DNA of 64,000 nt from Sediminibacterium sp. (GTDB taxonomy: Bacteria; Bacteroidota; Bacteroidia; Chitinophagales; Chitinophagaceae). The stretch spans positions 124,947 through 188,946 of the forward strand of contig JAEUVE010000018.1 of the NCBI GenBank assembly GCA_016786865.1. The letters are read 5' to 3'. Below the pieces are notes generated by a model. The model searched no databases. It was not told the origin of the DNA and was given only the letters and a program-made list of their open reading frames with translations. This document shows, piece after piece, positions 380 through 31,286 of the stretch; positions within the stretch are counted from its first letter, which is position 1; every line of letters starts with the position of its first letter. A program made the position numbers and the translations under genes.

Positions 380-411
380 TTTGCCGGTATAAGCTGCCTG
401 CTGTATTTTTG
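380..411 (+). promoter_or_regulatory. Bacteroidota primary-sigma promoter of the his operon
   Basis: TTTG (380-383), 20-nt spacer, TATTTTTG (404-411); matches the TTTG-N19-21-TAnnTTTG consensus. Confidence 0.75.
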
Positions 412-419
412 CGTTACGA

Positions 420-470
420 ATGAAACAAAACCTGCATATACATCATCATCATTTCTTACCCAAAGGGTAG
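420..470 (+). CDS. hisL: His operon leader peptide MKQNLHIHHHHFLPKG
   Basis: ATG at 420, five CAT codons (435, 441, 444, 447, 450), TAG at 468-470; sits directly before an intrinsic terminator and hisG. Confidence 0.92.
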   Translation: MKQNLHIHHHHFLPKG

Positions 471-535
471 GCAATTGGCGTGTATGCAATTAATATACAA
501 ATCAGTGAAGCTTACCAGTTTGGTAGGCTTTTTTT
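455..535 (+). promoter_or_regulatory. His attenuator (alternative hairpins and intrinsic terminator)
   Basis: 1:2 hairpin CTTACCC/GGGTAGG (455-471); antiterminator GGTAGGC (466-472) pairing with GCTTACC (510-516); terminator AAGCTTACCA-GTT-TGGTAGGCTT (508-530) with U-tract to 535. Confidence 0.88.
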
Positions 536-547
536 ATTTTTAAGACT

Positions 548-1426
548 ATGAGTAACCAGGTAAACAACAAGAGTAAACTGAAATTGGCCATTCAGAAAAG
601 TGGCCGGCTGCACGATGATTCTGTTCGTCTTCTGAAAGAATGCGGCATTGATATCAGCAATGGAATCAATAAGCTGAAAGCGGATGCAACCAACTTTCCG
701 ATAGAAGTCTTTTTTCTGAGAGACGACGATATTCCGCAGTATGTGGAAGATGGCGTGGCAGATATTGGATTTGTAGGGGAGAATGTGGTGTTCGAAAAAA
801 AGAAAAAAGTAGTGATTACCGACAAACTGGGCTTTGGTAAATGCCGCCTGAGTATGGCGGTACAGCGCAATGAGCAATATACCGGTATCCAGTCTTTACA
901 AGGCAGAAAAATTGCCACCAGCTATCCGGTGATCGTAGCGGATTACCTGAAGGAAAAAGGGGTTGATGCGGAAATTCACGAAATCAGCGGAAGTGTTGAA
1001 ATTGCCCCCGGCATAGGTCTCGCAGATGCCATCTGCGACCTGGTGAGCAGCGGTTCCACCCTGTTTATGAATGGTTTGAAAGAAGCCGAAGTGATCCTGC
1101 AATCCCAGGCAGTATTGATCAGGAACGAATCCCTGGAACCTGCAAAACAGCAATTGCTGGACCGCTTGCTGTTCAGAATACAGGCGGTTAAAAAAGCCAA
1201 AAACAACAAATACATTCTGCTGAATGCTCCCAATAATAAGCTGAAAGAAATCATTGCATTGTTACCTGGAATGAAAAGTCCTACTGTTTTACCGCTGGCA
1301 GAAGAAGGCTGGAGCAGTGTACACAGTGTATTAAATGAAAATGAATTCTGGGATATCATTGAGCAGCTGAAAGCGGCTGGGGCACAGGGTATCTTGGTAG
1401 TGCCAATTGAGAAAATGATTGTTTAA
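548..1426 (+). CDS. hisG: ATP phosphoribosyltransferase (long form)
   Basis: LAIQKSGRL, LRDDDIP, GSVEIAP motifs; C-terminal regulatory domain (LPGMKSPTV). Confidence 0.97.
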   Translation: MSNQVNNKSKLKLAIQKSGRLHDDSVRLLKECGIDISNGINKLKADATNFPIEVFFLRDDDIPQYVEDGVADIGFVGENVVFEKKKKVVITDKLGFGKCRLSMAVQRNEQYTGIQSLQGRKIATSYPVIVADYLKEKGVDAEIHEISGSVEIAPGIGLADAICDLVSSGSTLFMNGLKEAEVILQSQAVLIRNESLEPAKQQLLDRLLFRIQAVKKAKNNKYILLNAPNNKLKEIIALLPGMKSPTVLPLAEEGWSSVHSVLNENEFWDIIEQLKAAGAQGILVVPIEKMIV

Positions 1427-1444
1427 CTGTTTAAACTGAAAACG

Positions 1445-2725
1445 ATGATGAAAATCTTTCTGAGTCCGGACCGAAAAGACTGGCCCGGTTTATTGAAAAG
1501 ACCCGGTTTTGATCATGCAGATCTTACCGACAGGGTACGTCAGGTGCTTCAGGCGGTAAAACAGCAAGGGGATACTGCAGTGCGTGAGTATACCGCAGCA
1601 TTCGATGGTGTGCAGTTACAAAACAGCAGGGTAAGTCCGGATGAGATTGCAGCAGCATCCCTGCCCCGTGACCTGAAAGATGCTATTTTGCTGGCGGCCG
1701 CCAATATCCGCCGTTTTCACGAAAAGCAGGTTCCTAAAATGGAGAAGGCGGAAACCCTTCCCGGTGTGAAATGCTGGAGAAAAGCAGTTCCCATTCAAAA
1801 AGTGGGTCTCTATATACCTGGTGGAACAGCGCCTTTGTTTTCCACCATTCTCATGCTGGGAATACCTGCAGCCATTGCCGGTTGCGAGGAAGTGGTGCTT
1901 TGTTCTCCTCCGGATAAAAAAGGTCAGCTGCATCCGGCGATTCTGTTTGCAGCAGACCTGGTAGGCATTAAAAATATTTATAAGATTGGTGGGGTACAGG
2001 CCATTGCTGCCATGGCTTATGGAACGGAAACGGTTCCTGCTGTGTACAAGATATTCGGACCCGGTAACCAGTATGTAACCTGTGCTAAGCAACTGGTACA
2101 GCAGGAGGGTATTGCTATCGATATGCCTGCGGGCCCAAGTGAAGTATGTGTATTGGCAGACGATACGGCCCGTCCGGATTTTGTAGCTGCCGATTTGCTG
2201 AGTCAGGCCGAACATGGTGCAGACAGTCAGGTATTACTGGTAAGTACCAGTAAGGAACTGATACATTCGGTAAATGAATCCCTGGTTAAGCAGTTGAATC
2301 AATTGCCCCGTAAGGAAATGGCCAAAAAGGCATTGGAAAACAGTAAGGCCATTTTTGTTAAAACAAAAAAAGAGGCCATTGATCTGGTAAACGAATATGC
2401 AGCGGAACACCTCATCATTGCCTGTGCCAACGATGAACTCGTGGCATCTTCCATTGTAAATGCAGGTTCGGTATTTCTCGGACATTTTTCTCCGGAAAGT
2501 GTGGGAGACTATGCCAGCGGAACCAATCATACCCTGCCAACCAATGGGCATGCAAGGGCCTACAGTGGTGTGAGCCTCGATAGTTTTCTCAAAAAGATTA
2601 CCTATCAGCGCCTTACCAAAGCAGGATTGCAGCACATTGGCAGGGCAGTCGAAATCATGGCAGAAGCAGAAGGGCTACGTGCACACAAAGAGGCTGTTTC
2701 CATTCGTCTGAGAATAGAATCCTAG
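1445..2725 (+). CDS. hisD: Histidinol dehydrogenase
   Basis: [58 protein letters not shown]. Confidence 0.97.
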
Positions 2726-2789
2726 CAATGGCGCGCCCTGATCTGTCAAATGGCTTTTAACATCAATATTCAATTTATAATTTCTGATC

Positions 2790-3851
2790 ATGTTGTTCGA
2801 TCTTAATCAACTCATTCGGCCGAATATCGCCAGGCTGGTAGCATATTCTTCTGCAAGAGACGAATTCAGCGGTGAGGCAAAAGTATTCCTCGATGCCAAT
2901 GAAAACAGCCTGGGTTCTCCTTTATCAAAATGGTATAACCGATATCCGGACCCGCACCAGAAAGCCTTGAAGGAAAAGATTGCATTTGTAAAGCAATTGC
3001 CACCCGAACATATTTTTTTGGGAAATGGAAGTGATGAGTGCATCGATTTGCTGTACCGTTGTTTCTGTGAGCCGGGCAAAGACAATGCGATCATTTGTCC
3101 GCCTACTTATGGTATGTACGAAGTAAGCGCCAATATCAACGATGTTGCGGTAAAAAAAGTACCCCTGCTGGATGATTTTCAGCTCGATTTGGTTCACCTG
3201 GAAAATGCAGTGGACGCAAATACCAAACTGATCTGGATCTGTTCTCCCAACAATCCGACCGGTAATTCGTTGCACCGGATGGATATTGAAACGGTACTCA
3301 ATAACTTCAAGGGGATTGTGGTGATTGATGAAGCCTATATCAACTTCGCCCGTCAAAAATCCTTTGTTCAGGAACTGGCCGATTATCCCAACTTAGTGGT
3401 ACTGCAAACCTTCAGCAAGGCCTGGGGACTGGCAGGACTGCGCCTGGGCATGGCATTTGCTTCTGCGGCAATCATAGATGTGATGAATAAAGTGAAGCCG
3501 CCGTACAACATCAATCAGGCATCACAGGAACTGGCGTTGAAAGCACTGGAAGAAGTAGGGCAGGTGAACGATATGATCAAATTGCTGGTAGATATGCGTG
3601 AGGCGCTGGCAGAAGTATTCCTTTCCATGCCTACTGTAGAAAAAGTATATCCATCCGATGCCAATTTTATACTGGTGAAGATCCGGGATGCCCGAAAGGT
3701 ATACGAATTCCTCCTTACCAAAGGAATTGTGTTGCGCGACAGAAGCAATGTAAAGCTTTGCGAGGATTGTTTGCGGATTACGGTTGGCTCCGAACAGGAC
3801 AACACATTACTGGTAGATGCCATGCATGAATGGTATGCCCTGAATCCCTAA
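2790..3851 (+). CDS. hisC: Histidinol-phosphate aminotransferase
   Basis: LDANEN, NRYPDP, GNGSDE, SPNNPTG, DEAY, TFSKAWGLAGLRLG (PLP lysine). Confidence 0.96.
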   Translation: MLFDLNQLIRPNIARLVAYSSARDEFSGEAKVFLDANENSLGSPLSKWYNRYPDPHQKALKEKIAFVKQLPPEHIFLGNGSDECIDLLYRCFCEPGKDNAIICPPTYGMYEVSANINDVAVKKVPLLDDFQLDLVHLENAVDANTKLIWICSPNNPTGNSLHRMDIETVLNNFKGIVVIDEAYINFARQKSFVQELADYPNLVVLQTFSKAWGLAGLRLGMAFASAAIIDVMNKVKPPYNINQASQELALKALEEVGQVNDMIKLLVDMREALAEVFLSMPTVEKVYPSDANFILVKIRDARKVYEFLLTKGIVLRDRSNVKLCEDCLRITVGSEQDNTLLVDAMHEWYALNP

Positions 3852-3875
3852 TTTTACGATACCTAAACTTAAAAT

Positions 3876-5117
3876 ATGAAACTCAGTTTTTTATTGTTTT
3901 CGACTCTGGCAGCTTTTGGAGTGGCTTCTGCCCAGTCTCCGGCTGTTTCCATCAAAGTTCCGGCAGGATTTGCGGTTGCCAGTGTGGCAAAAGATTTCGG
4001 AAGGGTCCGCCATATTGCGGTGAACAGTAATGGCGATGTGTACATGAAACTGGAAAAGTTAAACAAAGGGAAAGGTATTTACCGGTTGAGGGATACTAAT
4101 AAAGATGGTATCATGGACGACACCCTGGCTTTTGGAAATTATATCGGCACCGGCATTGCAATAAAGAACGGTTATCTCTATGCGTCTTCCAATACAGACG
4201 TATATCGCTATAAGCTGGATCAGCAACAGAATCCGGTAAATCCGGATCAGCCTGAAACCATTGTTACCGGGCTGGTAGATAAACGACAACACGCTTCTAA
4301 ATCAATAGCGCTGGACAATGCCGGAAATATTTATGTGAACATCGGAGCACCCAGCAATGCCTGCCAGGAGCAGGACCGGAAACAGGGTTCTCCCGGAATG
4401 AATCCATGCCCCATTTTGGAAACAGCCGGAGGAATCTGGCAGTTCAGGGCCGATCAGCTCAATCAGTCTTATAAAGAAGGTATACGATATGCAACTGGTA
4501 TCCGGAATTGTGTAGGATTAGACTGGAACAATGAAGTGAATGAACTTTTTATTACCGTTCACGGAAGGGATATGCTGTACCAGTTCTATCCCGAAATGTA
4601 CGACCAGAAAAAGGGAGCCGAGCTTCCTTCAGAAACGATGTACATGGTGAAGAAAGGAGATGATTGTGGCTGGCCTTATGTGCATTGGGATCATTTTCAA
4701 AATAAGAAAATTCTGAATCCGGAATATGGAGGGGATGGTAAAAAAACAGGTGCGGAAAAAGCCATTGATCCATTGGTAGGATTTCCCGGTCATATGGCGC
4801 CTAATGCCTTGTTGTTCTATACCGGTAATCAGTTTCCGGAAAAATACAAGCATGGAGCATTCATTGCTTTTCACGGTAGCTGGAACAGGGCTCCGGAAAA
4901 CCAGGAAGGATTTTATGTGGTTTTTGTACCCATGAAAAATGGTAAGCCTACTGGTAAATGGGAAGTGTTTGCAGATGGCTTTTCCGGTGTGGATAAAGTG
5001 ACCAATCTAAGTGCGGTGAAACACCGTCCATGCGGACTGGCACAAGGCCCGGATGGTTCCCTGTATGTGTCCGACGACAACAAGGGATATGTTTGGAAAA
5101 TCAATTACAACAAATAA
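3876..5117 (+). CDS. Secreted glucose/sorbosone dehydrogenase-family beta-propeller protein
   Basis: Signal peptide ending ASA|Q; YATGIRN, HGRD, GWPY, GHMAP, AFHGSWNR, RPCGLAQGPDGSLYVSDD motifs of the GSDH/sorbosone dehydrogenase family. Confidence 0.85.
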   Translation: MKLSFLLFSTLAAFGVASAQSPAVSIKVPAGFAVASVAKDFGRVRHIAVNSNGDVYMKLEKLNKGKGIYRLRDTNKDGIMDDTLAFGNYIGTGIAIKNGYLYASSNTDVYRYKLDQQQNPVNPDQPETIVTGLVDKRQHASKSIALDNAGNIYVNIGAPSNACQEQDRKQGSPGMNPCPILETAGGIWQFRADQLNQSYKEGIRYATGIRNCVGLDWNNEVNELFITVHGRDMLYQFYPEMYDQKKGAELPSETMYMVKKGDDCGWPYVHWDHFQNKKILNPEYGGDGKKTGAEKAIDPLVGFPGHMAPNALLFYTGNQFPEKYKHGAFIAFHGSWNRAPENQEGFYVVFVPMKNGKPTGKWEVFADGFSGVDKVTNLSAVKHRPCGLAQGPDGSLYVSDDNKGYVWKINYNK

Positions 5118-5126
5118 ACGGCAGGG

Positions 5127-5546
5127 ATGAAAAAATGGATGGTATTATGCCTGCTGCTGGTATCAGGGATGGGAATGGTGGTTTCTTCCCAAACAGATCG
5201 TTCCGGTTTAAAGGCTTCGATGACAAGGGGTAAACAGGTCTACGACCGGTATTGCCTTACCTGCCATCAGGCAGACGGAGGAGGGGTTCCCCGGATGAAT
5301 CCGCCCATCGCCAATACAGAATACGTATTAGGCAGCAAGCAACGGTTGATTGGTATTGTACTCAACGGGTTGAATGTTCCTCTCGAAATTAACGGGGAGG
5401 AATATGAAAACCCTATGGCTTCACATGCCTTTCTGAAAGACCAGCAGATCGCAGATGTATTAACTTATATTCGAAATTCCTTTGGAAACAAAGCGTCTGC
5501 AGTAACGGTTGCAGAAGTGAAATCCGTGAGGGCAAAAAATAAATGA
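5127..5546 (+). CDS. Secreted monoheme class I cytochrome c
   Basis: Signal peptide, CLTCH heme-binding motif, distal Met in ENPMASH, IADVLTYIRNSFGN; stop overlaps the hisB start (ATGA). Confidence 0.9.
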   Translation: MKKWMVLCLLLVSGMGMVVSSQTDRSGLKASMTRGKQVYDRYCLTCHQADGGGVPRMNPPIANTEYVLGSKQRLIGIVLNGLNVPLEINGEEYENPMASHAFLKDQQIADVLTYIRNSFGNKASAVTVAEVKSVRAKNK

Positions 5547-6676
5547 TGAAACGTATATTATTCATCGACAGAGATGGCGTGGTATTGCAGGAGCCTCCGA
5601 CCGATTTTCAGGTAGACAGTGTTGAAAAAACCAGTTTTGTACCGGGAGCCATTACCCAGTTGCACAGAATTGCTGCAGACTTTGATTTCTATAAAGTAAT
5701 GGTGACCAACCAGGATGGTCTGGGTACCGAAAGTTATCCGGAGGATGATTTTCATCCTTTTCACAATCTGATGTTGCGAACCCTCGAAGGGGAAGGCTTT
5801 GTGTTCGATGAAATGATCATCGACAGAACATTTGCAGCCGATAACCAGCCAACCCGTAAACCTGGTACAGCCCTGCTGAGTCATTTCATTAACAATCCAG
5901 CTTTTGATCTGGCAAATTCCTTTGTAATCGGTGATCGCTGGAGTGATATTCAATTGGCCAAAAACTTAGGTTGCAAGGCCATTTACCTCAAATCCGGACT
6001 GCACGAACTCAGCGAAGAGCAGGTGTTTGAATACGCAGATACCATTGTGCTGGAAACCTCCGACTGGGCAGAGATTTATGCGTTTCTGAAACTGGGTTTG
6101 CGTAAGGTAACACATGAACGCAATACCAATGAAACCAAGATTCACATAGAGTTGAATATAGACGGCACTGGCAAATCCAACATCCATACCGGATTGGGTT
6201 TTTTTGATCATATGCTCGATCAGATTGCCCGCCATGGTAAAATGGATCTCAAGGTGATGACCAAGGGAGACCTTCACATAGATGAACACCATACGATTGA
6301 AGATACAGGTATTGCACTTGGTGAAGCTTTTGCCAAAGCCCTGACAGATAAACGCGGAATGGAGCGCTATGGTTTTGCTTTACCCATGGACGAGGCCGAA
6401 GCAAAAGTGTTGATTGATTTTGGTGGACGAAACTGGATTGTATGGAATGCAGCATTTACAAGAGAACGGGTAGGGGAAATGCCTACCGAAATGTTTTTTC
6501 ATTTCTTCAAATCGTTCAGCGATGGTGCCAGGTGCAATCTGAATATCGAATGCAGGGGAGAGAATGAGCACCATAAAATTGAAGCCATTTTCAAAGCATT
6601 TGCCAAGGCCATCCGCATGGCGGTAAGGCGCGATCCTTTGTCGGATCAGCTGCCTTCCACCAAAGGAGTGTTGTAA
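5543..6676 (+). CDS. hisB: Bifunctional histidinol-phosphatase / imidazoleglycerol-phosphate dehydratase
   Basis: N-terminal HAD domain FIDRDG...TNQDG...RKP...GDR; C-terminal IGPD with FFDHML, DEHHTIED, NEHHKIEAIFK, PSTKGVL. Confidence 0.97.
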   Translation: MMKRILFIDRDGVVLQEPPTDFQVDSVEKTSFVPGAITQLHRIAADFDFYKVMVTNQDGLGTESYPEDDFHPFHNLMLRTLEGEGFVFDEMIIDRTFAADNQPTRKPGTALLSHFINNPAFDLANSFVIGDRWSDIQLAKNLGCKAIYLKSGLHELSEEQVFEYADTIVLETSDWAEIYAFLKLGLRKVTHERNTNETKIHIELNIDGTGKSNIHTGLGFFDHMLDQIARHGKMDLKVMTKGDLHIDEHHTIEDTGIALGEAFAKALTDKRGMERYGFALPMDEAEAKVLIDFGGRNWIVWNAAFTRERVGEMPTEMFFHFFKSFSDGARCNLNIECRGENEHHKIEAIFKAFAKAIRMAVRRDPLSDQLPSTKGVL

Positions 6677-6681
6677 TACTA

Positions 6682-7143
6682 TTACAGGCTTTTAACCCGT
6701 TTCCAGGTATCTGTTTTGCCCAGCAGGGATATGCCCATGAAGCCTCTCACTTCGATGGTGCTTTCATTGATCATGGTAATTTTGCATCCGTAATCGTTGC
6801 CCGACTTTGGATCATACACTTTCCCGTTGTTCCAGAGGTTTTCTTTGGCATATTGTAAGTTGCGCAAATTTACCAATCCCAATAAAGGGCGCGATTTTAG
6901 CTGATCATCGCTGTTTTTTACATCGGTTTTAGGCTTTCCGGTGGCCGGATCATTGGGTTCTTTGAGCCATACCAGCTTTCCGTAATACAGGTCTCCCTGT
7001 TTGTAAATCTGGATTACCCCATTGCCTGCCAATGGCTTCCATAAGCCAACAATGGCATCCGGATTGTTATTGGCCATTGCAAAAGAAGCAGGGCCTGCCA
7101 GCAACATCAAAATCGCCAGGTACCGGTATACTATTTTTCTCAT
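6682..7143 (-). CDS. DUF2147-family secreted protein
   Basis: Signal peptide; IVGLWK, D.KN...RPLLGL, W.NGKVYDPKSG..Y, EVRGF.GISLLGKT.TW pattern. Start taken at ATG 7143 (ORF extends to 7161). Confidence 0.8.
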   Translation of the reverse strand: MRKIVYRYLAILMLLAGPASFAMANNNPDAIVGLWKPLAGNGVIQIYKQGDLYYGKLVWLKEPNDPATGKPKTDVKNSDDQLKSRPLLGLVNLRNLQYAKENLWNNGKVYDPKSGNDYGCKITMINESTIEVRGFMGISLLGKTDTWKRVKSL

Positions 7144-7154
7144 GAGATATTTTT

Positions 7155-7185
7155 TTTGCAATTTCCATCAAAATGGTCATCTTTG
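7155..7185 (+). promoter_or_regulatory. Probable trp operon promoter
   Basis: TTTG (7155-7158), 19-nt spacer, CATCTTTG (7178-7185; one mismatch to TAnnTTTG). Lies the same distance from its leader ATG as the his promoter does. Confidence 0.6.
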
Positions 7186-7193
7186 TAACAGTT

Positions 7194-7250
7194 ATGACAA
7201 TTATTAACAAACATTGGTGGTGGCATACAAACTCTGAACGGGGATTGTAG
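7194..7250 (+). CDS. trpL: Trp operon leader peptide MTIINKHWWWHTNSERGL
   Basis: ATG at 7194, TGG TGG TGG at 7215-7223 flanked by CAT at 7212 and 7224, TAG at 7248-7250; precedes a terminator and trpE. Confidence 0.92.
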   Translation: MTIINKHWWWHTNSERGL

Positions 7251-7309
7251 TGGCGTTGCCAATACTGATTGAATATATTCAAGGCCCCGGATAAAACCGG
7301 GGTTTTTTT
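7239..7309 (+). terminator. Trp attenuator terminator with antiterminator
   Basis: Hairpin AAGGCCCCGG-ATAAAA-CCGGGGTTTT (7281-7306) with U-tract to 7309; CGGGG (7239-7243) can pair with CCCCG (7285-7289) as an antiterminator. Confidence 0.87.
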
Positions 7310-7333: not shown

Positions 7334-8749
7334 ATGAAAAGAATTCGAATTGAAACAAGCGGTAAAAAAATGCTGGCAGATATTCATACGCCGGTGGGGA
7401 TTTACCTGCGTTTGAGAGACCGTTTCAGGGATACCATCCTGCTGGAGAGCACTGATCACCATGTTTCGGAAAACAGCTATTCATTTATATGTATCAATGC
7501 CATTGGTGGTATTGAAATCAGTTCTGCCGACCGGGTAGAATTTAAACTTCCCGGAAGGGAACCGGAAAGGGTCCAGATCAGCGAGGGCAGTAAAGTTCCG
7601 GAACTTATCTGGGAATATATGGGGCGTATGGAAGCTGCTCCGGTAGAAGACCGGGAACTGCAATTTGCTCAGGGACTTTACGGATACACCAGTTTTGATG
7701 CTGTTCAGTTTTTCGACAAAGTTGCACTTACCGACAAAGCCGAACCGGCCATTCCGCTGATGCGTTACCGGCTTTACCAATACGTGATTGCCATCAATCA
7801 CCATAAGGATATACTCTATCTCTGTGAAAACAGAATTGCCGGTATTGAATCGGATCTGGATGCAGTAGAGTCGCTGATCAGAAGCAAGGATGTGCCCGTG
7901 TTTCCGTTCCGTCTCAAAGGCAATGAGCGCTCCAATATGTCTGATGAAAATTATGTGGAAATGGTTAAGAAAGGCATCAAAAGCTGTATGCGGGGTGATG
8001 TGTTTCAGATTGTACTGAGTCGCCGGTTTGAACACAGTTTTACCGGAGATGAGTTCAATGTATACCGTGCTCTGCGCAGCATCAATCCTTCTCCTTATTT
8101 ATTCTTCTTCGACTATGGCAATTATAAATTATTCGGATCTTCTCCGGAAGCACAAATTATCGTGCAACAGGGAAAAGCAGTGGTGCATCCGATTGCCGGT
8201 ACGTTTCGCAGAACCGGAGATGAAAAAACAGACCAGGAAGCAGCAGCGCGTTTGCTGAAGGATGCGAAGGAAAATGCCGAGCATGTGATGCTGGTAGATT
8301 TAGCCAGAAATGATCTTAGCCGGGTATGTTCCGAAGTGGAAGTGAGCCGGTACAGGCAGGTACAATACTACAGTCATGTAATTCACCTGGTGAGCGAAGT
8401 AACCGGAAAGGTAAAACCAGAACAAAACCCTTTTGAACTGCTGGCCAAAACTTTTCCCGCAGGTACGTTAAGCGGAGCTCCCAAGATCAGGGCAATTGAA
8501 TTGATTGATGCATTGGAGCCTACCAGCAGGGGTTATTATGGTGGTGCAATCGGATTTGCCGGTTTTGACGGCAGCTTTAATCATGCTATTATGATCCGCA
8601 CATTCCTTTCCAGAAACAATACCCTGGTTTGTCAGGCAGGAGCAGGAGTGGTGGCGGCCAGTGTGCCGGAAAGTGAACTGCAGGAGGTTAACAATAAATT
8701 AAATGCATTAAAGACTGCCGCAAAAATGGCGGAAACCATTCATCCATAA
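7334..8749 (+). CDS. trpE: Anthranilate synthase component I
   Basis: LLES, GDVFQIVLS, NPSPY, SSPE, HPIAGT, KENAEHVMLVDLARND, FPAGTLSGAPK, YGGAIG, QAGAGVV. Confidence 0.96.
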   Translation: MKRIRIETSGKKMLADIHTPVGIYLRLRDRFRDTILLESTDHHVSENSYSFICINAIGGIEISSADRVEFKLPGREPERVQISEGSKVPELIWEYMGRMEAAPVEDRELQFAQGLYGYTSFDAVQFFDKVALTDKAEPAIPLMRYRLYQYVIAINHHKDILYLCENRIAGIESDLDAVESLIRSKDVPVFPFRLKGNERSNMSDENYVEMVKKGIKSCMRGDVFQIVLSRRFEHSFTGDEFNVYRALRSINPSPYLFFFDYGNYKLFGSSPEAQIIVQQGKAVVHPIAGTFRRTGDEKTDQEAAARLLKDAKENAEHVMLVDLARNDLSRVCSEVEVSRYRQVQYYSHVIHLVSEVTGKVKPEQNPFELLAKTFPAGTLSGAPKIRAIELIDALEPTSRGYYGGAIGFAGFDGSFNHAIMIRTFLSRNNTLVCQAGAGVVAASVPESELQEVNNKLNALKTAAKMAETIHP

Positions 8750-8761
8750 GCGCAAGAACCA

Positions 8762-9334
8762 ATGAAAATACTTGTATTTGATAATTACGATTCTTTCACC
8801 TACAACCTGGTTCACCTGGTGAACAAAATCACGGGCAACAAAGTGGATGTTTTTCGCAATGATGAATTGCCGCTCGAAAAAGTAGCTGCATACGATAAAA
8901 TCATTTTGTCTCCCGGTCCGGGTATCCCTTCGGAAGCCGGTCTTATGCCGGAACTGATTCAGCAGTATGCTTCTTCCAAAAGCATATTGGGCGTTTGCCT
9001 GGGTCACCAGGCGATTGGTGAATCCTTTGGCGGAACCCTTGTGAATCTCTCTACGGTTTACCACGGTGTAGCCACGCCTGTTTATACCAATGATGCCGCA
9101 AAAAGCCCGCTGTTCAAGGGTTTGCCGGAAGAGTTTACTGTAGGACGCTATCACAGCTGGGTGGTAAGTAGAGATGGTTTTCCTGTAGAACTCGAGATCA
9201 CGGCACTTGATGCCAATGGATACATCATGGGACTGCAGCATAAAAAATATGATGTGCAGGGGGTACAGTTTCATCCTGAAAGTGTCTTGACGCCGGATGG
9301 AGAAACCATGCTGCGCAACTGGCTGAAAAGCTGA
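8762..9334 (+). CDS. trpG: Anthranilate synthase component II (glutamine amidotransferase)
   Basis: DNYDSFTYNL, SPGPG, LGVCLGHQ, RYHS, QFHPES. Confidence 0.96.
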   Translation: MKILVFDNYDSFTYNLVHLVNKITGNKVDVFRNDELPLEKVAAYDKIILSPGPGIPSEAGLMPELIQQYASSKSILGVCLGHQAIGESFGGTLVNLSTVYHGVATPVYTNDAAKSPLFKGLPEEFTVGRYHSWVVSRDGFPVELEITALDANGYIMGLQHKKYDVQGVQFHPESVLTPDGETMLRNWLKS

Positions 9335-9353
9335 TATAACCCTGAGCCTATAC

Positions 9354-9381
9354 GGCTGTGGGTTTTCACAGCCTTGTTTTT
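9354..9381 (+). terminator. Terminator-like hairpin inside the trp operon between trpG and trpD
   Basis: GGCTGTG/CACAGCC perfect 7-bp stem (9354-9373) followed by TTGTTTTT. Confidence 0.55.
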
Positions 9382-9402
9382 AAAACCTTTGATACAGAAA
9401 CC

Positions 9403-10395
9403 ATGAAAAAAATATTACAATACCTGTTCTCTCATAAAACACTTTCCAGAGAAAAAGCCCGGGAGGTCATGCTCAATATTTCTGCCGGTCAATACAACGA
9501 AGCAGAGATCGCTTCCTTTATTACTGTGTACCTGATGCGAAGCATCACCATTGATGAACTGCAGGGATTCTGCGACGGACTGCTCGAGCTTTCTGTTAAA
9601 GTGAAGCTGGAAGGTGGTAAACTTATGGATATCGTAGGTACGGGCGGAGATGGAAAAAACTCTTTTAATATCTCTACTCTGGCCTGTTTTATTGTTGCTG
9701 GCGCAGGACAAAAAGTAGCCAAGCATGGAAACTATGGGGCGTCTACCATCAGCGGTGCATCTAATGTGATGGAGCAATTGGGGTATAAATTCAAAAATGA
9801 TAATGCCGCATTGCAAAAGGAACTGGATGCTGCCAATATTTGTTTTTTGCATGCACCCCTGTTTCACCCCGCTCTCAAAGCTGCGGGACCTGTTCGGAAA
9901 AGTCTGGGGATCAGAACCTTCTTCAACATGATGGGTCCGATGATCAATCCTTCCAAGCCCGATTTTCAATTGGTAGGTGTATACAATCTGGAAATGGCCA
10001 GGATTTACAATTACCTGCTGCAGCAAACAGAAAGGGAATTCACTATCATCCACAGCCTGGATGGGTACGATGAAATTTCACTCACTAGTGATACCAAGGT
10101 AATCACCAATGCCGGCGAACAGATTTTAACTCCGGAACAGTTGGGCAAACGTCCTGTTCGTCCGGAAGACATTCATGGAGGTAATACGGTAGAAGAGGCG
10201 GCCAAAATATTTTTGCGTATTATTAAAGGGGAGGGCACCTGGGCGCAAAACGCCGTGGTGCTCGCAAATGCAGCAATGGCACTCCATTGTACCGGGGGGT
10301 ATTCCAGCTACAATGATGCCTATAAGGCAGCAGTAGAAAGCCTGGAAAGCGGACGTGCCTATGCCGGACTTCAAAAACTGATTGCATTGCAATAA
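9403..10395 (+). CDS. trpD: Anthranilate phosphoribosyltransferase
   Basis: DIVGTGGDGKNSFNIST, KHGNY, SGAS, LHAPLFHPA, RTFFNMMGP, DGYDEIS. Start taken at ATG 9403. Confidence 0.96.
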   Translation: MKKILQYLFSHKTLSREKAREVMLNISAGQYNEAEIASFITVYLMRSITIDELQGFCDGLLELSVKVKLEGGKLMDIVGTGGDGKNSFNISTLACFIVAGAGQKVAKHGNYGASTISGASNVMEQLGYKFKNDNAALQKELDAANICFLHAPLFHPALKAAGPVRKSLGIRTFFNMMGPMINPSKPDFQLVGVYNLEMARIYNYLLQQTEREFTIIHSLDGYDEISLTSDTKVITNAGEQILTPEQLGKRPVRPEDIHGGNTVEEAAKIFLRIIKGEGTWAQNAVVLANAAMALHCTGGYSSYNDAYKAAVESLESGRAYAGLQKLIALQ

Positions 10396-10406
10396 TTTAT
10401 TCGAAC

Positions 10407-11204
10407 ATGAACATACTGGACACCATTATAGCGGAAAAAAAGATTGAAGTAGCGGAGCGTCGGGCAATCCGTTCTGTGGAAGATTTGCAAAAAATGCCTC
10501 TGTTCAACAGGCCAATGCTTTCGCTGAAGCAGTCGCTGCTGGATCCTTCCAAAACAGGGATCATTGCAGAGTACAAACGAAAATCTCCCAGCAAGGGCAT
10601 CATCAATGCCAGCGCTACAGTGGAAGCAGTAACTGCTGCTTATACTGCAAACGGCGCTTCCGGGTTGTCTGTATTAACAGACGATCCATTCTTTGGCGGC
10701 AAGCTCGAAGATCTGGTTGCGGCCAGGGCAAATGAAATACCCATCCTGCGAAAGGATTTTATGATCAGCGAATACCAGCTGGCAGAAGCCAGGGCTTTTG
10801 GTGCAGATGTAATTCTGCTGATTGCCGCCTGTCTGAGCCCGATAGAAGTAAGGCAGTTGGCGGGAAAAGCCAAAGAACTGGAGCTGGAGGTATTACTAGA
10901 AATACACAATGAAGCAGAGCTGGAGCATATTTGCCCGGAAGTAGACCTGGTTGGGATCAACAATCGCAATCTGAAAGATTTTGAAGTAGACATCAATAAA
11001 TCCATGCAGTTGCTAAACATGTTGCCTGCCAATAAACCTGCTGTGGCAGAAAGTGGCATCCATTCTGTAGATACCATTGTAACTTTACAAAAGGCAGGAT
11101 TTAAAGGCTTCCTGATCGGGGAGCGTTTTATGAAAGCTTCTGACCCTTCGATTGCTTTTGCCGATTTTGTAACGCAATTAAAAGCAAAACAGGATGCGGG
11201 CTAA
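10407..11204 (+). CDS. trpC: Indole-3-glycerol-phosphate synthase
   Basis: IIAEYKRKSPSKG, SVLTD, LRKDF, LLEIH, GINNRNL, ESGI, LIGE. Confidence 0.96.
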   Translation: MNILDTIIAEKKIEVAERRAIRSVEDLQKMPLFNRPMLSLKQSLLDPSKTGIIAEYKRKSPSKGIINASATVEAVTAAYTANGASGLSVLTDDPFFGGKLEDLVAARANEIPILRKDFMISEYQLAEARAFGADVILLIAACLSPIEVRQLAGKAKELELEVLLEIHNEAELEHICPEVDLVGINNRNLKDFEVDINKSMQLLNMLPANKPAVAESGIHSVDTIVTLQKAGFKGFLIGERFMKASDPSIAFADFVTQLKAKQDAG

Positions 11205-11835
11205 AGTTTGTGGTTTAAACAGTGTGGAGCAGTTCATGCAGCTGGATGAAATGGGTGTGGAGTTTGGTGGATTTATCTTCTATCCCCAGAGTCCGAGGTA
11301 TGCCCTGAAACACATGCGGCCAGACGAGCTGAAAAGGGCCAAAGGATTGCACATCAATAAAGTAGGTGTGTTTGTAAATGAGCCGGTAGAAAATGTGTTG
11401 CGAATGGTGGATGAACTGGGGCTTTACCTGGTACAGTTGCATGGCGATGAAACACCCCGGTATTGCGAACGAATTGCCGATTATGTTTCTGTGATCAAAG
11501 CCTTCCGTTTGCGTAATGATGATGATGTGTTGTGGAAGGTCAAGGATTATTATGATGTGGCAGATATGTTTTTATTTGATACGGAAGGCGCAGGCTATGG
11601 AGGAACAGGAAAACAGTTCAACTGGGATATCCTGAAAGACCTTTCTATCAATAAACCGTTTTACCTGAGTGGCGGAATTGGGCCCAACGATCTGGCCATG
11701 CTGGAGCAGTTTGCGCAGGATCCCGTAGCCAAAGACCTGTTTGCCATAGATGTGAACAGTAAATTTGAAACGGCACCAGGTATTAAAAATATGGCGTTGC
11801 TGAAAAAATTTATAGAGGAGGTTAAAGCAATCTGA
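11194..11835 (+). CDS. trpF: Phosphoribosylanthranilate isomerase
   Basis: KVCGL, GFIFYPQSPR, VGVFVN, VQLHGDE, FLFDT, GGTG..F.W, LSGGI, DVNSKFE. Confidence 0.95.
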   Translation: MRAKVCGLNSVEQFMQLDEMGVEFGGFIFYPQSPRYALKHMRPDELKRAKGLHINKVGVFVNEPVENVLRMVDELGLYLVQLHGDETPRYCERIADYVSVIKAFRLRNDDDVLWKVKDYYDVADMFLFDTEGAGYGGTGKQFNWDILKDLSINKPFYLSGGIGPNDLAMLEQFAQDPVAKDLFAIDVNSKFETAPGIKNMALLKKFIEEVKAI

Positions 11836-12356
11836 TGAAACAACAAATGAAATGGGTGGTTCTTGCAGGATGGATGCTCCTGATGGGTTTGCAGACCAAG
11901 GCCCAGCAATTATCCGGCGTTTACCTAACAGAAAATGGCAGGGCAAGCTACCTGATTACGGTAGAACAGGTACAACTCCTGCTGAGCGATTCCGGAAAAT
12001 TGGCTGAGATCAGAACTGCATCATCCGGCAATGTTGTGTACAATATTGCCCGTCAGATAGAACAGATCGGCGATGTTAAAATCGGCCTGAATTACCAGGG
12101 TAAAATCAATCGGATAGGCAGTACTGCCATATTGTATGATTTCAACGGAAGAATAGACCGGATCGGGGAACTCAGCTTTCGGTACAATTACAATAATATG
12201 GTGGCTGCTGTTGGCAACCAGGCCATCCGCTACAACCCGGATCAAACCATCGATCAGTTCGACCGGTACCGGATTGTATACAATTACAACAAGCAAGTGC
12301 AGAAGATAGACGACAGTGGAGGACTGATTACCCTGCAATACATTTTTAACAAGTAG
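11835..12356 (+). CDS. Secreted hypothetical protein with six tandem 16-aa repeats
   Basis: Signal peptide ending TKA|QQ; start overlaps the trpF stop (TGATG); repeats span aa 67-162. Confidence 0.75.
12033..12320 (+). repeat. Six 16-aa protein repeats, consensus roughly (I/F)xYNYNG(R/K/Q)IxxIGxxx
   Basis: [16 protein letters not shown] / [16 protein letters not shown] / [16 protein letters not shown] / [16 protein letters not shown] / [16 protein letters not shown] / [16 protein letters not shown]. Confidence 0.8.
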
Positions 12357-12367
12357 AAAATCAAACA

Positions 12368-13552
12368 ATGAATTATCAACAACCCAGTGAACAAGGTTAT
12401 TACGGAAAATTTGGCGGTGCCTATATTCCGGAAATGCTGCATGCGAATGTAGAGGAGTTGAAGGAGCAGTATCTGCAAATTATGCATGAGCCTTCTTTTG
12501 CAGAAGAGTTCCGGCTGCTGCTGAAAGATTATGTTGGTCGTCCTACCCCTTTGTTTTTTGCTGAGCGCCTGAGCAACGAGCTGAATGCGCCTGTTTACCT
12601 GAAACGGGAAGATTTATGTCATACAGGTGCACACAAGATTAATAATACCATTGGCCAGATATTGCTTGCCCGTAAACTGGGTAAAACCCGGATCATTGCA
12701 GAAACCGGTGCCGGGCAGCATGGTGTAGCTACTGCAACCGTTTGTGCCCTGAAAGGTATGGAGTGTATTGTTTACATGGGCGAAAAAGACATTGAACGTC
12801 AGGCTCCGAATGTGGCCCGCATGAAAATGCTTGGCGCAACGGTAGTTCCTGCAACAAGTGGCAGTAAAACATTGAAGGATGCAACCAATGAAGCCATCCG
12901 CGACTGGATCAATCATCCGCAGAATACCCACTATATAATCGGAAGTGTGGTTGGGCCTCATCCTTATCCCGATATGGTAGCCCGTTTCCAGAGTGTGATC
13001 AGTGAGGAAATACGGATTCAGCTGAAAGAAAAAACCGGTAATGAACTGCCTACGCATGTGGTAGCCTGTGTGGGTGGGGGCAGCAATGCAGCCGGTGCAT
13101 TTTATCACTATCTGAACGAGCTGTCGGTACAGCTGGTTGCAGTAGAAGCTGCAGGACATGGGGTAAACAGTGGCATGAGTGCAGCCACAACACAGTTGGG
13201 TAAACCGGGAATCCTTCACGGAAGCAAAAGCCTGGTGATGCAGACTGCTGATGGTCAGGTGGTAGAACCCCACAGTATTTCAGCCGGTCTGGATTATCCT
13301 GGGGTAGGGCCGCTGCATGCCAACTTATTTGATTCGGGAAGAGGTACATTTTTAAGCGCAACCGACGATGAGGCATTGGAAGCAGCATTCCACCTCAGCA
13401 GAACAGAAGGTATTATTCCTGCACTGGAATCGGCGCATGCTTTGTCTGTATTGAGCAGGCTGAACCTTACCCCTTCGGACCGGGTGGTGGTATGTTTGAG
13501 CGGAAGGGGAGATAAGGACCTGGATACCTACATGAAAGCAATGAATAAATAA
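12368..13552 (+). CDS. trpB: Tryptophan synthase beta chain
   Basis: [68 protein letters not shown]. Confidence 0.98.
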
Positions 13553-14344
13553 ATGATCATGAGCAGAATAAAGCAAATTTTCAGTTTAAAAAAACAGCGG
13601 GTACTCAATGTGTATTTCACAGCCGGATACCCTGCTTTAAATGATACCTTACCCATCATGCGTTCGCTGGCTGCCTCCGGTGCAGACCTGATCGAAATCG
13701 GAATGCCTTACAGCGATCCGCTTGCAGATGGCCCTGTAATTCAGGACAGCAGCAGTAAGGCTCTGGTCAATGGAATGACTATTCAAACCCTGTTTGATCA
13801 GCTGAAGGGATTTCGTTCAGAACCATTGCTGGCCAATGCCGGAGTGGTCTTGATGGGCTATATGAACCCTGTGTTGCAGTATGGGTTTGAAGCTTTTTGT
13901 GCAGCAGCTGCTGATGCAGGCGTGGATGGACTCATTCTTCCTGATTTGCCGGAATACGAATTTGAAAATGAATATGGAGCCATCGTAAAAAAATACGGAC
14001 TCGATTTTATCTTTCTGGTTACTCCGGAAACGACAGATACAAGGGTTTATCAGCTCGACCGCCTGAGTTCCGGTTTTTTGTATGCAGTCAGTTCTTCCGC
14101 TACAACCGGAGGAGAGAAGGATTTTGCTGCAGTTGAGTTGTATTTGCAAAAGTTGCAGCAAATGAAGCTGAACAATCCGGTGTTGGTTGGATTTGGTATT
14201 AAAGACCAGGCTACGTTTCATTCTGCCTGTAAATACAGCAACGGTGCTATCATTGGCAGTGCCTATATAAAAGCAATCACCGGGGCCTCCGATATTGCTG
14301 TTGCTACAAAAGCATTTCTGGAACCTATTCTACAAGTTAAATAG
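13553..14344 (+). CDS. trpA: Tryptophan synthase alpha chain
   Basis: YFTAGYP, IEIGMPYSDPLADGPVIQ, LMGYMNP, DGLILPDLP, VGFGI, IIGSA. Confidence 0.97.
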   Translation: MIMSRIKQIFSLKKQRVLNVYFTAGYPALNDTLPIMRSLAASGADLIEIGMPYSDPLADGPVIQDSSSKALVNGMTIQTLFDQLKGFRSEPLLANAGVVLMGYMNPVLQYGFEAFCAAAADAGVDGLILPDLPEYEFENEYGAIVKKYGLDFIFLVTPETTDTRVYQLDRLSSGFLYAVSSSATTGGEKDFAAVELYLQKLQQMKLNNPVLVGFGIKDQATFHSACKYSNGAIIGSAYIKAITGASDIAVATKAFLEPILQVK

Positions 14345-14350
14345 CGCAAA

Positions 14351-14944
14351 GTGAAACTGGTTATTATAAAATACAATGCAGGTAATATACAATCGGTCTT
14401 ATATGCACTGGAAAGAATTGGCGCCACGGCAGTGGTTACAGATGATATCGGGGAAATAGCTGCCGCAGATAAAGTGATCTTTCCGGGTGTAGGAGAAGCC
14501 AGTACTGCTATGGCTTATTTAAAGGAGCGGAACCTGGATCGGGTCATTACCGGTTTACAACAACCTGTGTTGGGGATTTGCCTCGGGATGCAGCTGATGT
14601 GCAGGTTCAGTGAAGAAAACCATACCAGCTGTTTGGGTATTTTTGATGAGGATGTAAAAGCCTTTACTGCATCAGCAGCTTCGACCATTAAAATACCGCA
14701 AATTGGCTGGAACAATATATTTGATCTGAAAACACCCTTGTTTAAAGGGGTGAATGAAAACAGCTATTGCTATTTTGTTCACGGTTATTATGCGGCATTG
14801 GGTGCACATACCATTGCGGCTACCGAATACGGAATTAAATACAGCTCGGCCCTGCACAGGGACAATTTTTACGGAACGCAGTTCCATCCCGAAAAAAGTG
14901 CAGGAGTCGGAGAACAGATTTTGAAAAATTTTATTGAATTGTAA
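14351..14944 (+). CDS. hisH: Imidazole glycerol phosphate synthase, glutaminase subunit
   Basis: GTG start 6 nt after the trpA stop; YNAGN..SV, IFPGVG, LGICLGMQ, PQIGWN, YFVHGY, QFHPEKS. Confidence 0.96.
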   Translation: MKLVIIKYNAGNIQSVLYALERIGATAVVTDDIGEIAAADKVIFPGVGEASTAMAYLKERNLDRVITGLQQPVLGICLGMQLMCRFSEENHTSCLGIFDEDVKAFTASAASTIKIPQIGWNNIFDLKTPLFKGVNENSYCYFVHGYYAALGAHTIAATEYGIKYSSALHRDNFYGTQFHPEKSAGVGEQILKNFIEL

Positions 14945-14953
14945 AAAGGCAGC

Positions 14954-15679
14954 ATGGAAATTATACCGGCAATAGATATCATCGATGGCAAATGTGTAAG
15001 GCTTACCCAGGGCGATTACAACCAAAAGAAAGTGTATAATGAAAACCCGCTGGAAGTAGCCAGGGCTTTTGAAGATGCGGGCATCAAACGGCTGCACCTG
15101 GTAGACCTCGATGGTGCTAAGGCCGGCGCAGTACAAAACTGGAAAGTGCTGGAATCCATTGCAGGGTTCACCAGGCTGACCATTGATTTTGGCGGAGGCA
15201 TTAAGAAAGAATCTGATCTCAAAATTGTTTTCAACTCCGGAGCAGCACTAGCCACGATCGGCAGTCTGGCCGTAAAGGATCCGGCCCTTTTTGCCGACTG
15301 GATCCTGGATTATGGTGGAGAACGTTTCTTTTTAGGAGCCGATGTGAAAGAAGAAAAGATTGCGGTAGGCGGTTGGCTCGAAACCACGGAATTGTCTGTA
15401 TTTGATTTTGTGGACGATTACATCCGCAAAGGGATCAGCCAGGTATTCTGTACCGATATCAGCAAAGACGGGAAGCTGGAAGGCCCTTCGCTGGAATTGT
15501 ACCGGGCACTGATTGGGCGTTTTCCCGACCTGCATTTTGTGGCCAGTGGCGGAGTGAGTAATATGGAAGATGTGCTTTCACTGAAAGCCATTGGATGTAA
15601 AGGAGTCATCATTGGTAAAGCCATTTACGAAGGAAGAATCACCATCGAAGAATTGAGTAAACTGAATCAGGCACTTTAA
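14954..15679 (+). CDS. hisA: ProFAR isomerase
   Basis: [55 protein letters not shown]. Confidence 0.97.
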
Positions 15680-15690
15680 AACAGATTATT

Positions 15691-16449
15691 TTGCTTACAA
15701 AAAGAATTATACCCTGTCTTGATATCAAAGACGGGCGCACGGTTAAAGGCGTCAATTTCGAAAACATCCGCGATGCGGGTGACCCGGTGGAACTGGGCGC
15801 ACTTTATGCAGCCCAGGGGGCCGATGAACTGGTATTCCTCGATATTACTGCTACCAACGAACGGCGTAAAACCCTTAGCGAATTGGTGAATAAGATTGCA
15901 CATCACATCAATATCCCGTTTACGGTTGGTGGTGGTATTGCTTCTGTGGAAGATGTGCGTGTTTTGTTGCAAAATGGCGCCGATAAAATTTCGGTGAATA
16001 CTTCGGCCTTTAAAAATCCGGGACTGATCAAAGAACTGGCCCTTGAGTTCGGCAGTCAGTGTGTAGTGCTGGCCATTGATACCAAAAAGGAAATCGATGG
16101 CAATTGGTATGTTTACCTGAACGGCGGCAGAATAAAAACAGATCGGCTTTGTTTCGACTGGGCAAAGGAAGCGGTGGAACTGGGCGCTGGTGAAATTCTG
16201 CTGACCTCCATGAACAACGATGGCACCAAACAGGGTTTTGCACTGGATATTACCCGTCAGCTATCAATGAACCTGCCTGTTCCGGTGATTGCTTCCGGTG
16301 GCGCTGGTACGATGGAACATTTCGCAGATGTGTTTGAACAGTCCGGTGCAGATGCGGCTCTGGCTGCGAGTATTTTTCACTTTAAGGAGATTGGCATTCC
16401 GGAACTGAAAACATTTCTTGCCCAAAAGGGCATCGCTATACGATTATAA
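15691..16449 (+). CDS. hisF: Imidazole glycerol phosphate synthase, cyclase subunit
   Basis: TTG start; [54 protein letters not shown]. Confidence 0.97.
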
Positions 16450-16477
16450 CCCAAATTTGTATTACAATAGCCTGAAT

Positions 16478-17074
16478 ATGAAAGTTGATTTTAAAAAATA
16501 CAGTGATGGCCTGGTTCCTGCTGTGATCCAGGATTATCAAACCCATAAAGTACTGATGCTGGGATTCATGAATGAGGAGGCGCTGGCCAAAACAACGGAA
16601 ACCGGAAAGGTCACTTTTTACAGCAGAAGCAAGCAGCGGCTTTGGACCAAGGGTGAGGAAAGCGGTCATTTTCTGGAACTGAAATCGATTGCTTCCGACT
16701 GTGATGATGATACCTTACTGATTAAAGTACACCCCATCGGACCAACCTGTCATACCGGCGCCGACACCTGCTGGAGCGAGCCCAATCACAGTGAGGATTT
16801 CCTGCTGTACCTTCAGGATATCATCAATCTGAGGAAGAAAGCTCCTGTAGAGGATTCTTATGTGGCCCGAATGTTCTCGAAAGGACTCAATAAGATTGCG
16901 CAAAAAGTGGGAGAGGAAGCTGTAGAAATGGTGATCGAAGCCAAAGACAATAATACAGAGCTGTTTCTGAACGAATCGGCCGACCTGCTTTTTCATTATT
17001 TGCTTTTACTTAACGCGAAAGGACATACATTAGCAGATGTTCTGGCGGTTCTTCAAAAACGTCATTCCAAATAA
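16478..17074 (+). CDS. hisIE: Bifunctional PR-AMP cyclohydrolase / PR-ATP pyrophosphatase
   Basis: GLVPAVIQD, YSRSKQRLWTKGEESG, DCDDDT, GPTCHTG, KVGEEAVE, ADLLFH. Start taken at ATG 16478. Confidence 0.96.
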   Translation: MKVDFKKYSDGLVPAVIQDYQTHKVLMLGFMNEEALAKTTETGKVTFYSRSKQRLWTKGEESGHFLELKSIASDCDDDTLLIKVHPIGPTCHTGADTCWSEPNHSEDFLLYLQDIINLRKKAPVEDSYVARMFSKGLNKIAQKVGEEAVEMVIEAKDNNTELFLNESADLLFHYLLLLNAKGHTLADVLAVLQKRHSK

Positions 17075-31279: not shown

Positions 31280-31286
31280 ATTAGGG

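Follow-up and report, generated by a model that had tools for sequence, protein, structure and literature searches.

A tryptophan leader with flanking histidine codons heads a hybrid trp-his operon in Sediminibacterium and is probably a bivalent Trp/His attenuator

We analyzed a stretch of 64,000 nucleotides (nt) from the forward strand of contig JAEUVE010000018.1 (positions 124,947 to 188,946) of the Sediminibacterium sp. assembly GCA_016786865.1, hereafter the window. At 7194-7309 it carries a leader element, trpL, that precedes a tryptophan (Trp) operon running on into four histidine (His) biosynthetic genes. A preliminary description of this DNA had interpreted the element as an attenuator sensing both amino acids, and every sequence element it named, i.e., the leader open reading frame (ORF), the H-W-W-W-H codons at 7212-7226, the CGGGG/CCCCG antiterminator, and a U-tailed terminator, was read from the window sequence at the place given there. 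Likewise, the palindrome at 7269-7282 was seen inside the antiterminator loop in the constrained-fold structure. Codons are numbered here from the Trp run, -1 being the codon directly before it and +1 the codon directly after it. The features of the element are as follows, with the minimum free energy (MFE) fold given where pairing was predicted from it:

7156..7185, + strand: putative promoter-like element of Bacteroidota type, TTG at 7156-7158, 19 nt, then CATCTTTG at 7178-7185 (motif match)
7194..7250, + strand: trpL leader ORF of 18 codons, MTIINKHWWWHTNSERGL, from ATG at 7194 to the TAG stop at 7248-7250 (homologues in relatives)
7212-7214, + strand: CAT (His) right before the Trp run, at -1; differs among relatives (sequence and comparison)
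7215-7223, + strand: three Trp codons (TGG x3), the primary regulatory codons (sequence and comparison)
7224-7226, + strand: CAT (His) right after the Trp run, at +1; the candidate for sensing His (comparison)
7213..7263, + strand: 1:2 (anti-antiterminator) helix, 7213-7222 with 7254-7263 and 7224-7226 with 7250-7252, enclosing CUCU:GGGG (MFE fold)
7239..7289, + strand: antiterminator, CGGGG at 7239-7243 with CCCCG at 7285-7289, closing a three-way junction (constrained folds)
7269..7282, + strand: perfect 14-bp palindrome TTGAATATATTCAA, the inner hairpin of the antiterminator junction (sequence and constrained fold)
7285..7309, + strand: intrinsic terminator, CCCCGG at 7285-7290 and CCGGGG at 7297-7302, loop ATAAAA, U7 at 7303-7309 (terminator scan)

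The element has the parts of a classical attenuator: a short ORF with clustered Trp codons, an intrinsic terminator before trpE, and a predicted alternative antiterminator that shares the 5' arm of that terminator. The terminator (7285-7302 plus U7) was the top match of the terminator scan in the region, and the 123-nt region folded with an MFE of -34.4 kcal/mol (z = -2.94), beating 200 of 200 dinucleotide shuffles. A covariance-model scan of 1-22000 against Rfam at E <= 1 found no Trp_leader (RF00513), His_leader (RF00514), T-box, or other family at 7194-7309. Since scanning for sigma-70 promoters is uninformative in a Bacteroidota genome, we instead used the motif TTG-N17-21-TAnnTTTG over the first 21 kilobases (kb). 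The sole strict match (381-411) lies 8 nt before the ATG of a His leader at the start of the window, and the promoter-like element of trpL, with one mismatch to the motif, ends 8 nt ahead of the trpL ATG. From these matches trpL appears to have its own promoter and a very short 5' untranslated region (UTR). Leaders homologous to trpL and of the same architecture were found 5' of trpE in more than 150 related genomes; therefore, what is seen at 7194-7309 is not due to chance.

The gene content downstream and upstream of trpL is that of a his operon interrupted by a trp operon, the latter with its own leader and nested between hisB and hisH:

7334..14344, + strand: trpE, trpG, trpD, trpC, trpF, orf173, trpB, trpA (NCBIfam matches; none for orf173)
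14351..17074, + strand: hisH, hisA, hisF, hisIE, the first starting 6 nt after trpA (NCBIfam matches)
381..537, + strand: canonical His attenuator with promoter motif at 381-411, leader ORF MKQNLHIHHHHFLPKG at 420-470, and terminator at 507-531 followed by a T-run (scans)
548..6676, + strand: hisG, hisD, hisC, genes of a GSDH-like haem protein and of cytochrome c, then hisB; together the 5' half of the his operon that the trp block interrupts (family matches)
6682..7161, - strand: DUF2147 gene between hisB and trpL (Pfam PF09917), missing in many relatives

Thus the operon headed by trpL holds the trp genes together with hisH, hisA, hisF, and hisIE, as had been proposed. The same description called these his genes orphaned, which applies in that no leader or terminator of their own precedes hisH in this window. 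It does not convey that the trp block is nested within the his operon, nor that hisGDC..B are controlled apart, by a canonical His attenuator 6.8 kb upstream of trpL. The only Rfam match of that His leader (419-537) was a sub-threshold one to Phe_leader (29.2 bits vs. a gathering score of 55). The sole tRNA gene in the window is a tRNA-His (GUG) at 31284-31361 on the - strand; the His codons of both leaders are all CAT, read by this tRNA via wobble, and the trp and his genes together use CAT 59 times and CAC 44 times.

The layout recurs in relatives. All of about 24 species genomes of the same genus share the his-trp-his order, many of them without the DUF2147 gene, so that hisB and trpL are then co-directional. 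Their leaders all read WWWH, and the residue before the Trp run varies (H, Y, I, F, M, or K). Among 92 hybrid operons, the trpA-hisH gap was shorter than 100 nt in 78, and neither a separate His leader, nor a His-rich small ORF, nor a terminator was found between trpA and hisH in any of the 92. Genomes lacking the trpA-hisH fusion have a contiguous hisGDCBHAF(IE) under its own His leader. No leader was found 5' of the relocated trp(B)A-hisH clusters of three further genomes (G145, G074, and G027). We infer that trpA and hisH are co-transcribed. Trp genes nested in a his operon had already been noted, in the same arrangement, in Thermoflavifilum thermophilum and Filimonas lacunae, both Chitinophagaceae (Del Duca et al., 2021; PMC8305728). 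That study deals with gene order only, states the absence of expression data, does not mention leader peptides or attenuators, and does not analyze regulation.

To compare leaders with and without downstream his genes, we assembled 160 Bacteroidota trp leaders of known linkage, mostly from Chitinophagaceae, of which 100 were linked (hisH follows trpA) and 60 belonged to stand-alone trp operons. The family set took one genome per genus (trpE present in 115 of 151 genomes; 109 loci taken). A second set, drawn differently, comprised 80 named loci and included Terrimonas, Flavihumibacter, Hydrotalea, Ferruginibacter, Sediminibacterium, Niabella, Chitinophaga, and Arachidicoccus, along with Flavobacteriales and Bacteroidales outgroups. 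The window proteins served as tblastn queries to map gene order and, draft contigs being used, linkage in fragmented assemblies was settled from the whole-genome coordinates of trpA and hisH. The tree was a protein tree of concatenated TrpE, TrpG, TrpD, and TrpC, standing in for a species tree.

Results showed that the His codons follow linkage. The WWW run was present in 147 of the 160 leaders, and His occurred at -1, +1, or +2 of the run in every linked leader (100/100) vs. 31/60 stand-alone leaders. Most of this is due to the +1 codon (96/100 vs. 31/60); the four linked leaders without it read HWWWQ (three) or WWWQH (one), i.e., carry His at -1 or +2. At -1, His was found in 26/100 linked vs. 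1/60 stand-alone leaders, the single latter case being a genome from which trpBA-hisHAF recently moved away. Stand-alone operons without +1 His have Q, L, P, N, Y, or T at that position. The second sample taken alone gave +1 His in 22/23 linked vs. 16/27 unlinked leaders. Hence the co-occurrence of His-flanked WWW with the trpA-hisH fusion, put forward in the preliminary description, was borne out, and the equal frequency in stand-alone operons that would have spoken against it was not seen. The H-W-W-W-H block itself fared less uniformly: it is present here and its +1 His is nearly invariant in hybrid operons, whereas the -1 His, found in 26% of them, is not fixed.

The coupling holds when shared ancestry is considered. 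A likelihood test of dependent evolution (Pagel-type, own implementation) gave a likelihood-ratio test statistic (LRT) for +1 His of 30.1 (p = 3e-7) on the within-family sample of 109 tips and 33.3 (p = 6e-8) on all 160 tips; in the latter, +1 His was lost at a rate of 2.8 in unlinked vs. 0.083 in linked lineages, a difference of about 34-fold. The -1 His gave an LRT of 17.6 (p = 1.5e-4). Codon parsimony at +1 counted, in linked lineages (tree length 27.5), 7 synonymous (CAT/CAC) and 2 non-synonymous changes and, in unlinked lineages (tree length 20.6), 7 synonymous and 22 non-synonymous changes (Fisher p = 0.006). Since CAT/CAC swaps are equally free in both groups, the constraint is on the identity of His and not on the nucleotides. 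Taken together, the comparison suggests that His codons beside the Trp run are kept by selection only where his genes depend on the trp leader.

The alternative helices are conserved as well. Scored on an alignment of 90 sequences, the terminator was 99.2% paired, with compensatory changes at 4 of 7 pairs; the 1:2 helix had 85.7% of cells paired, a level reached by 0 of 500 shuffles; and the antiterminator CGGGG:CCCCG was 84.6% paired, with both of its arms replaced together in a divergent clade. The palindrome at 7269-7282 is kept only in the closest relatives and is about 50% paired family-wide, and a role for it as an operator or family-wide element was dropped on that account.

We then asked at which codons a stalled ribosome would leave the antiterminator free. 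Equilibrium folding with the full terminator was rejected as a model of the kinetic switch because the terminator always wins (P about 0.8-0.97), in line with what a switch of that kind would show; we therefore folded the transcript as it stands before the terminator 3' arm emerges. In 118 leaders folded up to the terminator loop, nucleotides covered by the ribosome were forced to be unpaired (assumed footprint, A site -15 to +12). With the A site at -2 to +1, the mean probability that the terminator 5' arm is sequestered was 0.73-0.78, and it exceeded 0.5 in 95-98% of leaders; on the Trp codons themselves it was 0.77-0.78. It then fell to 0.55 at +2 and 0.31 at +3. At the stop codon the family-wide mean was 0.53, higher than in this window, where the values were 0.83 at -1, on the Trp codons, and at +1, then 0.66 at +2, 0.27 at +3, and 0.25 at the stop. 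In this model, the stretch in which a stall keeps the antiterminator arm accessible ends with +1, and a stall at -1 serves just as well; it is at these two positions that His codons occur.

The mechanism we propose would operate as follows. Transcription would start a few bases before trpL, and a ribosome would translate the 18-codon leader. Given ample charged tRNA-Trp and tRNA-His, it would reach the stop at 7248 and cover CGGGG (7239-7243), the terminator (7285-7302 plus U7) would form, and transcription would end ahead of trpE. With tRNA-Trp uncharged, a stall on the TGG codons (7215-7223) would disrupt the 1:2 helix and free CGGGG to pair with CCCCG (7285-7289) as the antiterminator. The additional step is that a stall on the +1 His codon (7224-7226) would have the same structural outcome, as would, in this genome, a stall on the -1 His codon (7212-7214). 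His starvation would then also open the operon, including its last four genes, hisHAFIE, which have no attenuator of their own. On the comparative evidence and the modelled stalls, we think it likely, though by no means certain, that read-through responds to His by way of the one or two His codons beside the Trp run, making one switch for Trp and His. The element would then probably be a bivalent Trp/His attenuator, a variant of multivalent attenuation. Several characters of multivalent attenuators are found here: the operon encodes enzymes for both amino acids (trpEGDCFBA and hisHAFIE, with no separate leader before hisH), the second set of codons appears to be under selection tied to operon content, and in the model the Trp and His codons both lie within the stall-competent stretch. 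Another such character, the several codons per amino acid of the thr and ilv leaders, is absent for His.

A number of observations weigh against His sensing. The +1 His is not diagnostic of his-gene linkage, being present in about half of the stand-alone operons, among them those of Cloacibacterium, one Chryseobacterium, and a Bacteroidales metagenome-assembled genome (MAG); the preliminary description had foreseen His codons near the run in relatives lacking the hybrid operon, and in this it was right. Two of the three neighboring residues used as controls were also linkage-dependent in the larger sample: T at +2 was lost at a rate of 2.1 in unlinked vs. 0.66 in linked lineages (p = 0.014) and N at +3 at 3.2 vs. 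0.79 (p = 5e-4), while S at +4 (1.8 vs. 1.1) was not significant. Leaders in unlinked lineages may therefore evolve somewhat faster overall, and part of the signal may reflect this. The difference for these neighbors is only 1.6-4-fold, all three were non-significant in the first sample, and +1 His is conserved 8-14 times better than they are in linked lineages and no better in unlinked ones. A conservative sign test on independent pairs of the full sample was borderline, with 5.4 pairs in the predicted direction, 0.1 opposite, and 8.5 ties (median p = 0.06); the first sample, underpowered in this respect, gave 3, 0, and 4. The stall window hinges on the footprint assumed. There are one or two His codons in trpL vs. 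five in the His leader and, according to a modelling study (PMC1183508), attenuation with few regulatory codons has low sensitivity and higher basal expression. One or two His codons would presumably suffice for a useful response, which is expected to be modest in size since sensitivity in the published modelling is lower with few regulatory codons. The organism has been recorded in wastewater and bioreactor metagenomes, and a few contigs from low-depth data labelled metatranscriptome or "RNA?" span trpA/hisH (14077-14423 and 14249-14560) or hisH/hisA (14932-15199). These are compatible with co-transcription; having no conditions attached, they say nothing on regulation, and hisH may also have an internal promoter.

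The CAU triplet itself is part of the RNA structure. In the 1:2 helix the Trp run and CAU pair with a segment that begins at the stop codon, CAU with (A/G)UG (here G7250-U7251-G7252), and among the 90 sequences the C-G pair is found in 81, A-U in 66, and U-A or U-G in 76. This RNA-level constraint, a further point against sensing, could favor CAU for structural reasons and may explain why the triplet is common even in stand-alone operons. It also lends weight to the main rival reading, a purely Trp-sensing attenuator, in which the flanking His codons would be structural or incidental. CAU would be favored for extending the 1:2 helix at the stop codon, and a C after TGG would be structurally preferred; nearly all +1 codons do begin with C. 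The genes hisHAFIE would be expressed by basal read-through, trp-type attenuators being leaky, or from an unrecognized internal promoter, and flux would be set by feedback inhibition of HisG together with the upstream His attenuator. That only one His codon is conserved, that stand-alone operons with +1 His include some outside the family, and that control residues are partly linkage-dependent too are in keeping with this. However, pairing does not account for the contrast between linked and unlinked lineages, because in unlinked clades CAT has changed to CAA, CAG, CTT, TAT, AAT, or CCT while the partner segment remained unchanged. Nor does a purely Trp-sensing leader explain why non-synonymous loss at +1 is about 15 times commoner per tree length in unlinked lineages with CAT/CAC swaps equal, why four of four linked leaders without +1 His carry one at -1 or +2, or why -1 His occurs almost only in linked lineages (26 vs. 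1). We therefore regard this explanation as rather unlikely, though it deserves to be kept in mind. Concerning the His sensing proposed earlier for this element, then, the comparative evidence and the antitermination-competent stalls modelled at -1 and +1 speak for it, the CAU pairing and the small number of His codons speak against it, and function is inferred. As a separate observation, the +1 codon and the stop codon are paired at their third bases (7224-7226 with 7250-7252; columns 21/45 of alignment A2); four sequences show a change on both sides to a C-G pair (CAC with TAG), and CAC is not enriched with TAG overall (8 with TAG, 8 with TAA, 7 with TGA).

In a further scheme the two attenuators would act in series on one super-operon. 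Transcripts of hisHAFIE would come mostly from the promoter at 381-411, run through hisB, and pass the trp attenuator; the His codon of trpL would let transcripts made under His starvation pass, and the trp promoter would chiefly drive the trp genes. Many relatives would permit this, with hisB and trpL co-directional, about 200 nt apart, and no DUF2147 gene between them, and in this window a weak terminator-like site at 6937-6957 is the only one found on the + strand between hisB and trpL. In addition, the comment on two such clusters in PMC8305728 suggests a single transcriptional unit. The convergent DUF2147 gene that separates hisB from trpL in this window, the promoter-like element directly ahead of trpL, and the many hybrid trp-hisHAFIE operons without hisB within 600 nt upstream all make the scheme unlikely. 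As it still requires the His codon to be sensed, it would be a variant of the bivalent attenuator rather than an alternative to it. That the association with linkage is a phylogenetic or sampling artefact, the leader being under no His-related selection at all, is highly improbable: a few deep events can inflate Pagel-type tests, linkage calls came from draft contigs, a gene tree took the place of a species tree, and the sign test is borderline, but linkage changed at least 19 times and +1 His at least 20 times on the tree, independent pairs never reverse direction, the result of the first sample held after the second, differently drawn sample was added, and the synonymous/non-synonymous contrast is drawn within the same branches.

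Several observations concern the gene cluster and its neighbors. The product of orf173 (11835-12356; 173 amino acids), which lies between trpF and trpB and overlaps the trpF stop, has no Pfam or NCBIfam match, and only some relatives (e.g., L001, L002, L006-L008, L036, L057, L070, L091, L146, and L170) have a homologue there, at 42-50% identity. The genes for the GSDH-like haem-binding protein and cytochrome c (3876-5546) sit between hisC and hisB, a position the pair holds in several other genera and, within this genus, in almost every species examined, with one species lacking a cytochrome c match. The DUF2147 gene (6682-7161) varies in presence among species of the genus, and one contig from an RNA run joins 6717 to 7203, skipping 485 nt over this gene, with only 21 nt on the shorter side; it may stem from a variant in the population that lacks the gene, or be an artefact. 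In one genome of the same genus (L025; G012:C1:588000-607500), trpE and hisB are in several fragments with internal stops and the rest of the cluster is seemingly intact; the pathway appears to be decaying. One outgroup genus of the family (L134) has two tandem WWW leader ORFs, MNTEKQSLINTQWWWTVTQDMWTV and MKHAIILSINTQWWWTVTRSP, about 150-315 nt upstream of trpE, which may be a duplicated attenuator. In Cloacibacterium (L209) and a Flavobacteriales MAG (L210), a WWWH-led trp operon is convergent with the his operon, trpA being followed by hisIE, hisF, etc. on the opposite strand; this is adjacency without co-transcription.

Compared with known systems, trpL resembles the trp leader of E. coli and Salmonella in its short ORF with tandem Trp codons, 1:2 helix, mutually exclusive antiterminator and terminator, U-tract, and position before trpE and the genes that follow, and in that the position of the ribosome decides between structures. 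It differs in lacking any sequence or covariance-model similarity (no match to Rfam Trp_leader), in having three Trp codons and the antiterminator 5' arm inside the leader ORF, in its apparently very short 5' UTR and Bacteroidota-type promoter, and in the His codons flanking the Trp run and the four his genes in the operon. Multivalent attenuation is a textbook mechanism, known so far for amino acids whose pathways are related, as in the enterobacterial thr operon (Thr and Ile) and ilvGMEDA and ilvBN (Ile/Leu/Val). As proposed here, one peptide mixes codons for several amino acids and starvation for any of them relieves termination. However, those leaders have many codons for metabolically linked amino acids of one pathway family, whereas here the unrelated Trp and His pathways would be coupled by operon fusion, with just one or two codons for His, on the margin of the stall window. 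In the aromatic supraoperon of Bacillus subtilis, hisC lies downstream of trpA under the control of TRAP. That arrangement is similar in having a his gene co-transcribed behind trpA and in cross-pathway regulation of His and aromatic synthesis, but there control is mediated by a protein (TRAP on GAG/UAG repeats) instead of by ribosome stalling, and there is no dual-codon leader. A search of literature available without subscription turned up neither a Trp/His attenuator nor Chitinophagaceae trp leaders.

A broader reading, on which we find the arguments evenly balanced, is that the regulatory-codon content of the attenuator tracks operon content over evolution, that his and trp are run as a two-switch circuit, and that a single hungry codon is enough. 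Once hisHAFIE depended on the trp attenuator, His would have become fixed at a codon bordering the Trp stall window, a second His at -1 would have arisen repeatedly, and the +1 codon would have decayed each time the his genes left. In such a circuit the first half of the His pathway would answer His alone, and the second half, together with the whole Trp pathway, would answer Trp or His.

These leaders and attenuators of Bacteroidota are unannotated and absent from Rfam, and the present element draws attention to them. If the proposal is true, it bears on how few hungry codons suffice for attenuation control, and a Trp/His attenuator arising from operon fusion would show that cis-regulatory logic can be rewired by one or two codons as gene order changes. 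With at least 19 independent changes of linkage, in either direction, the Chitinophagaceae constitute a natural, replicated experiment on the gain and loss of regulatory codons.

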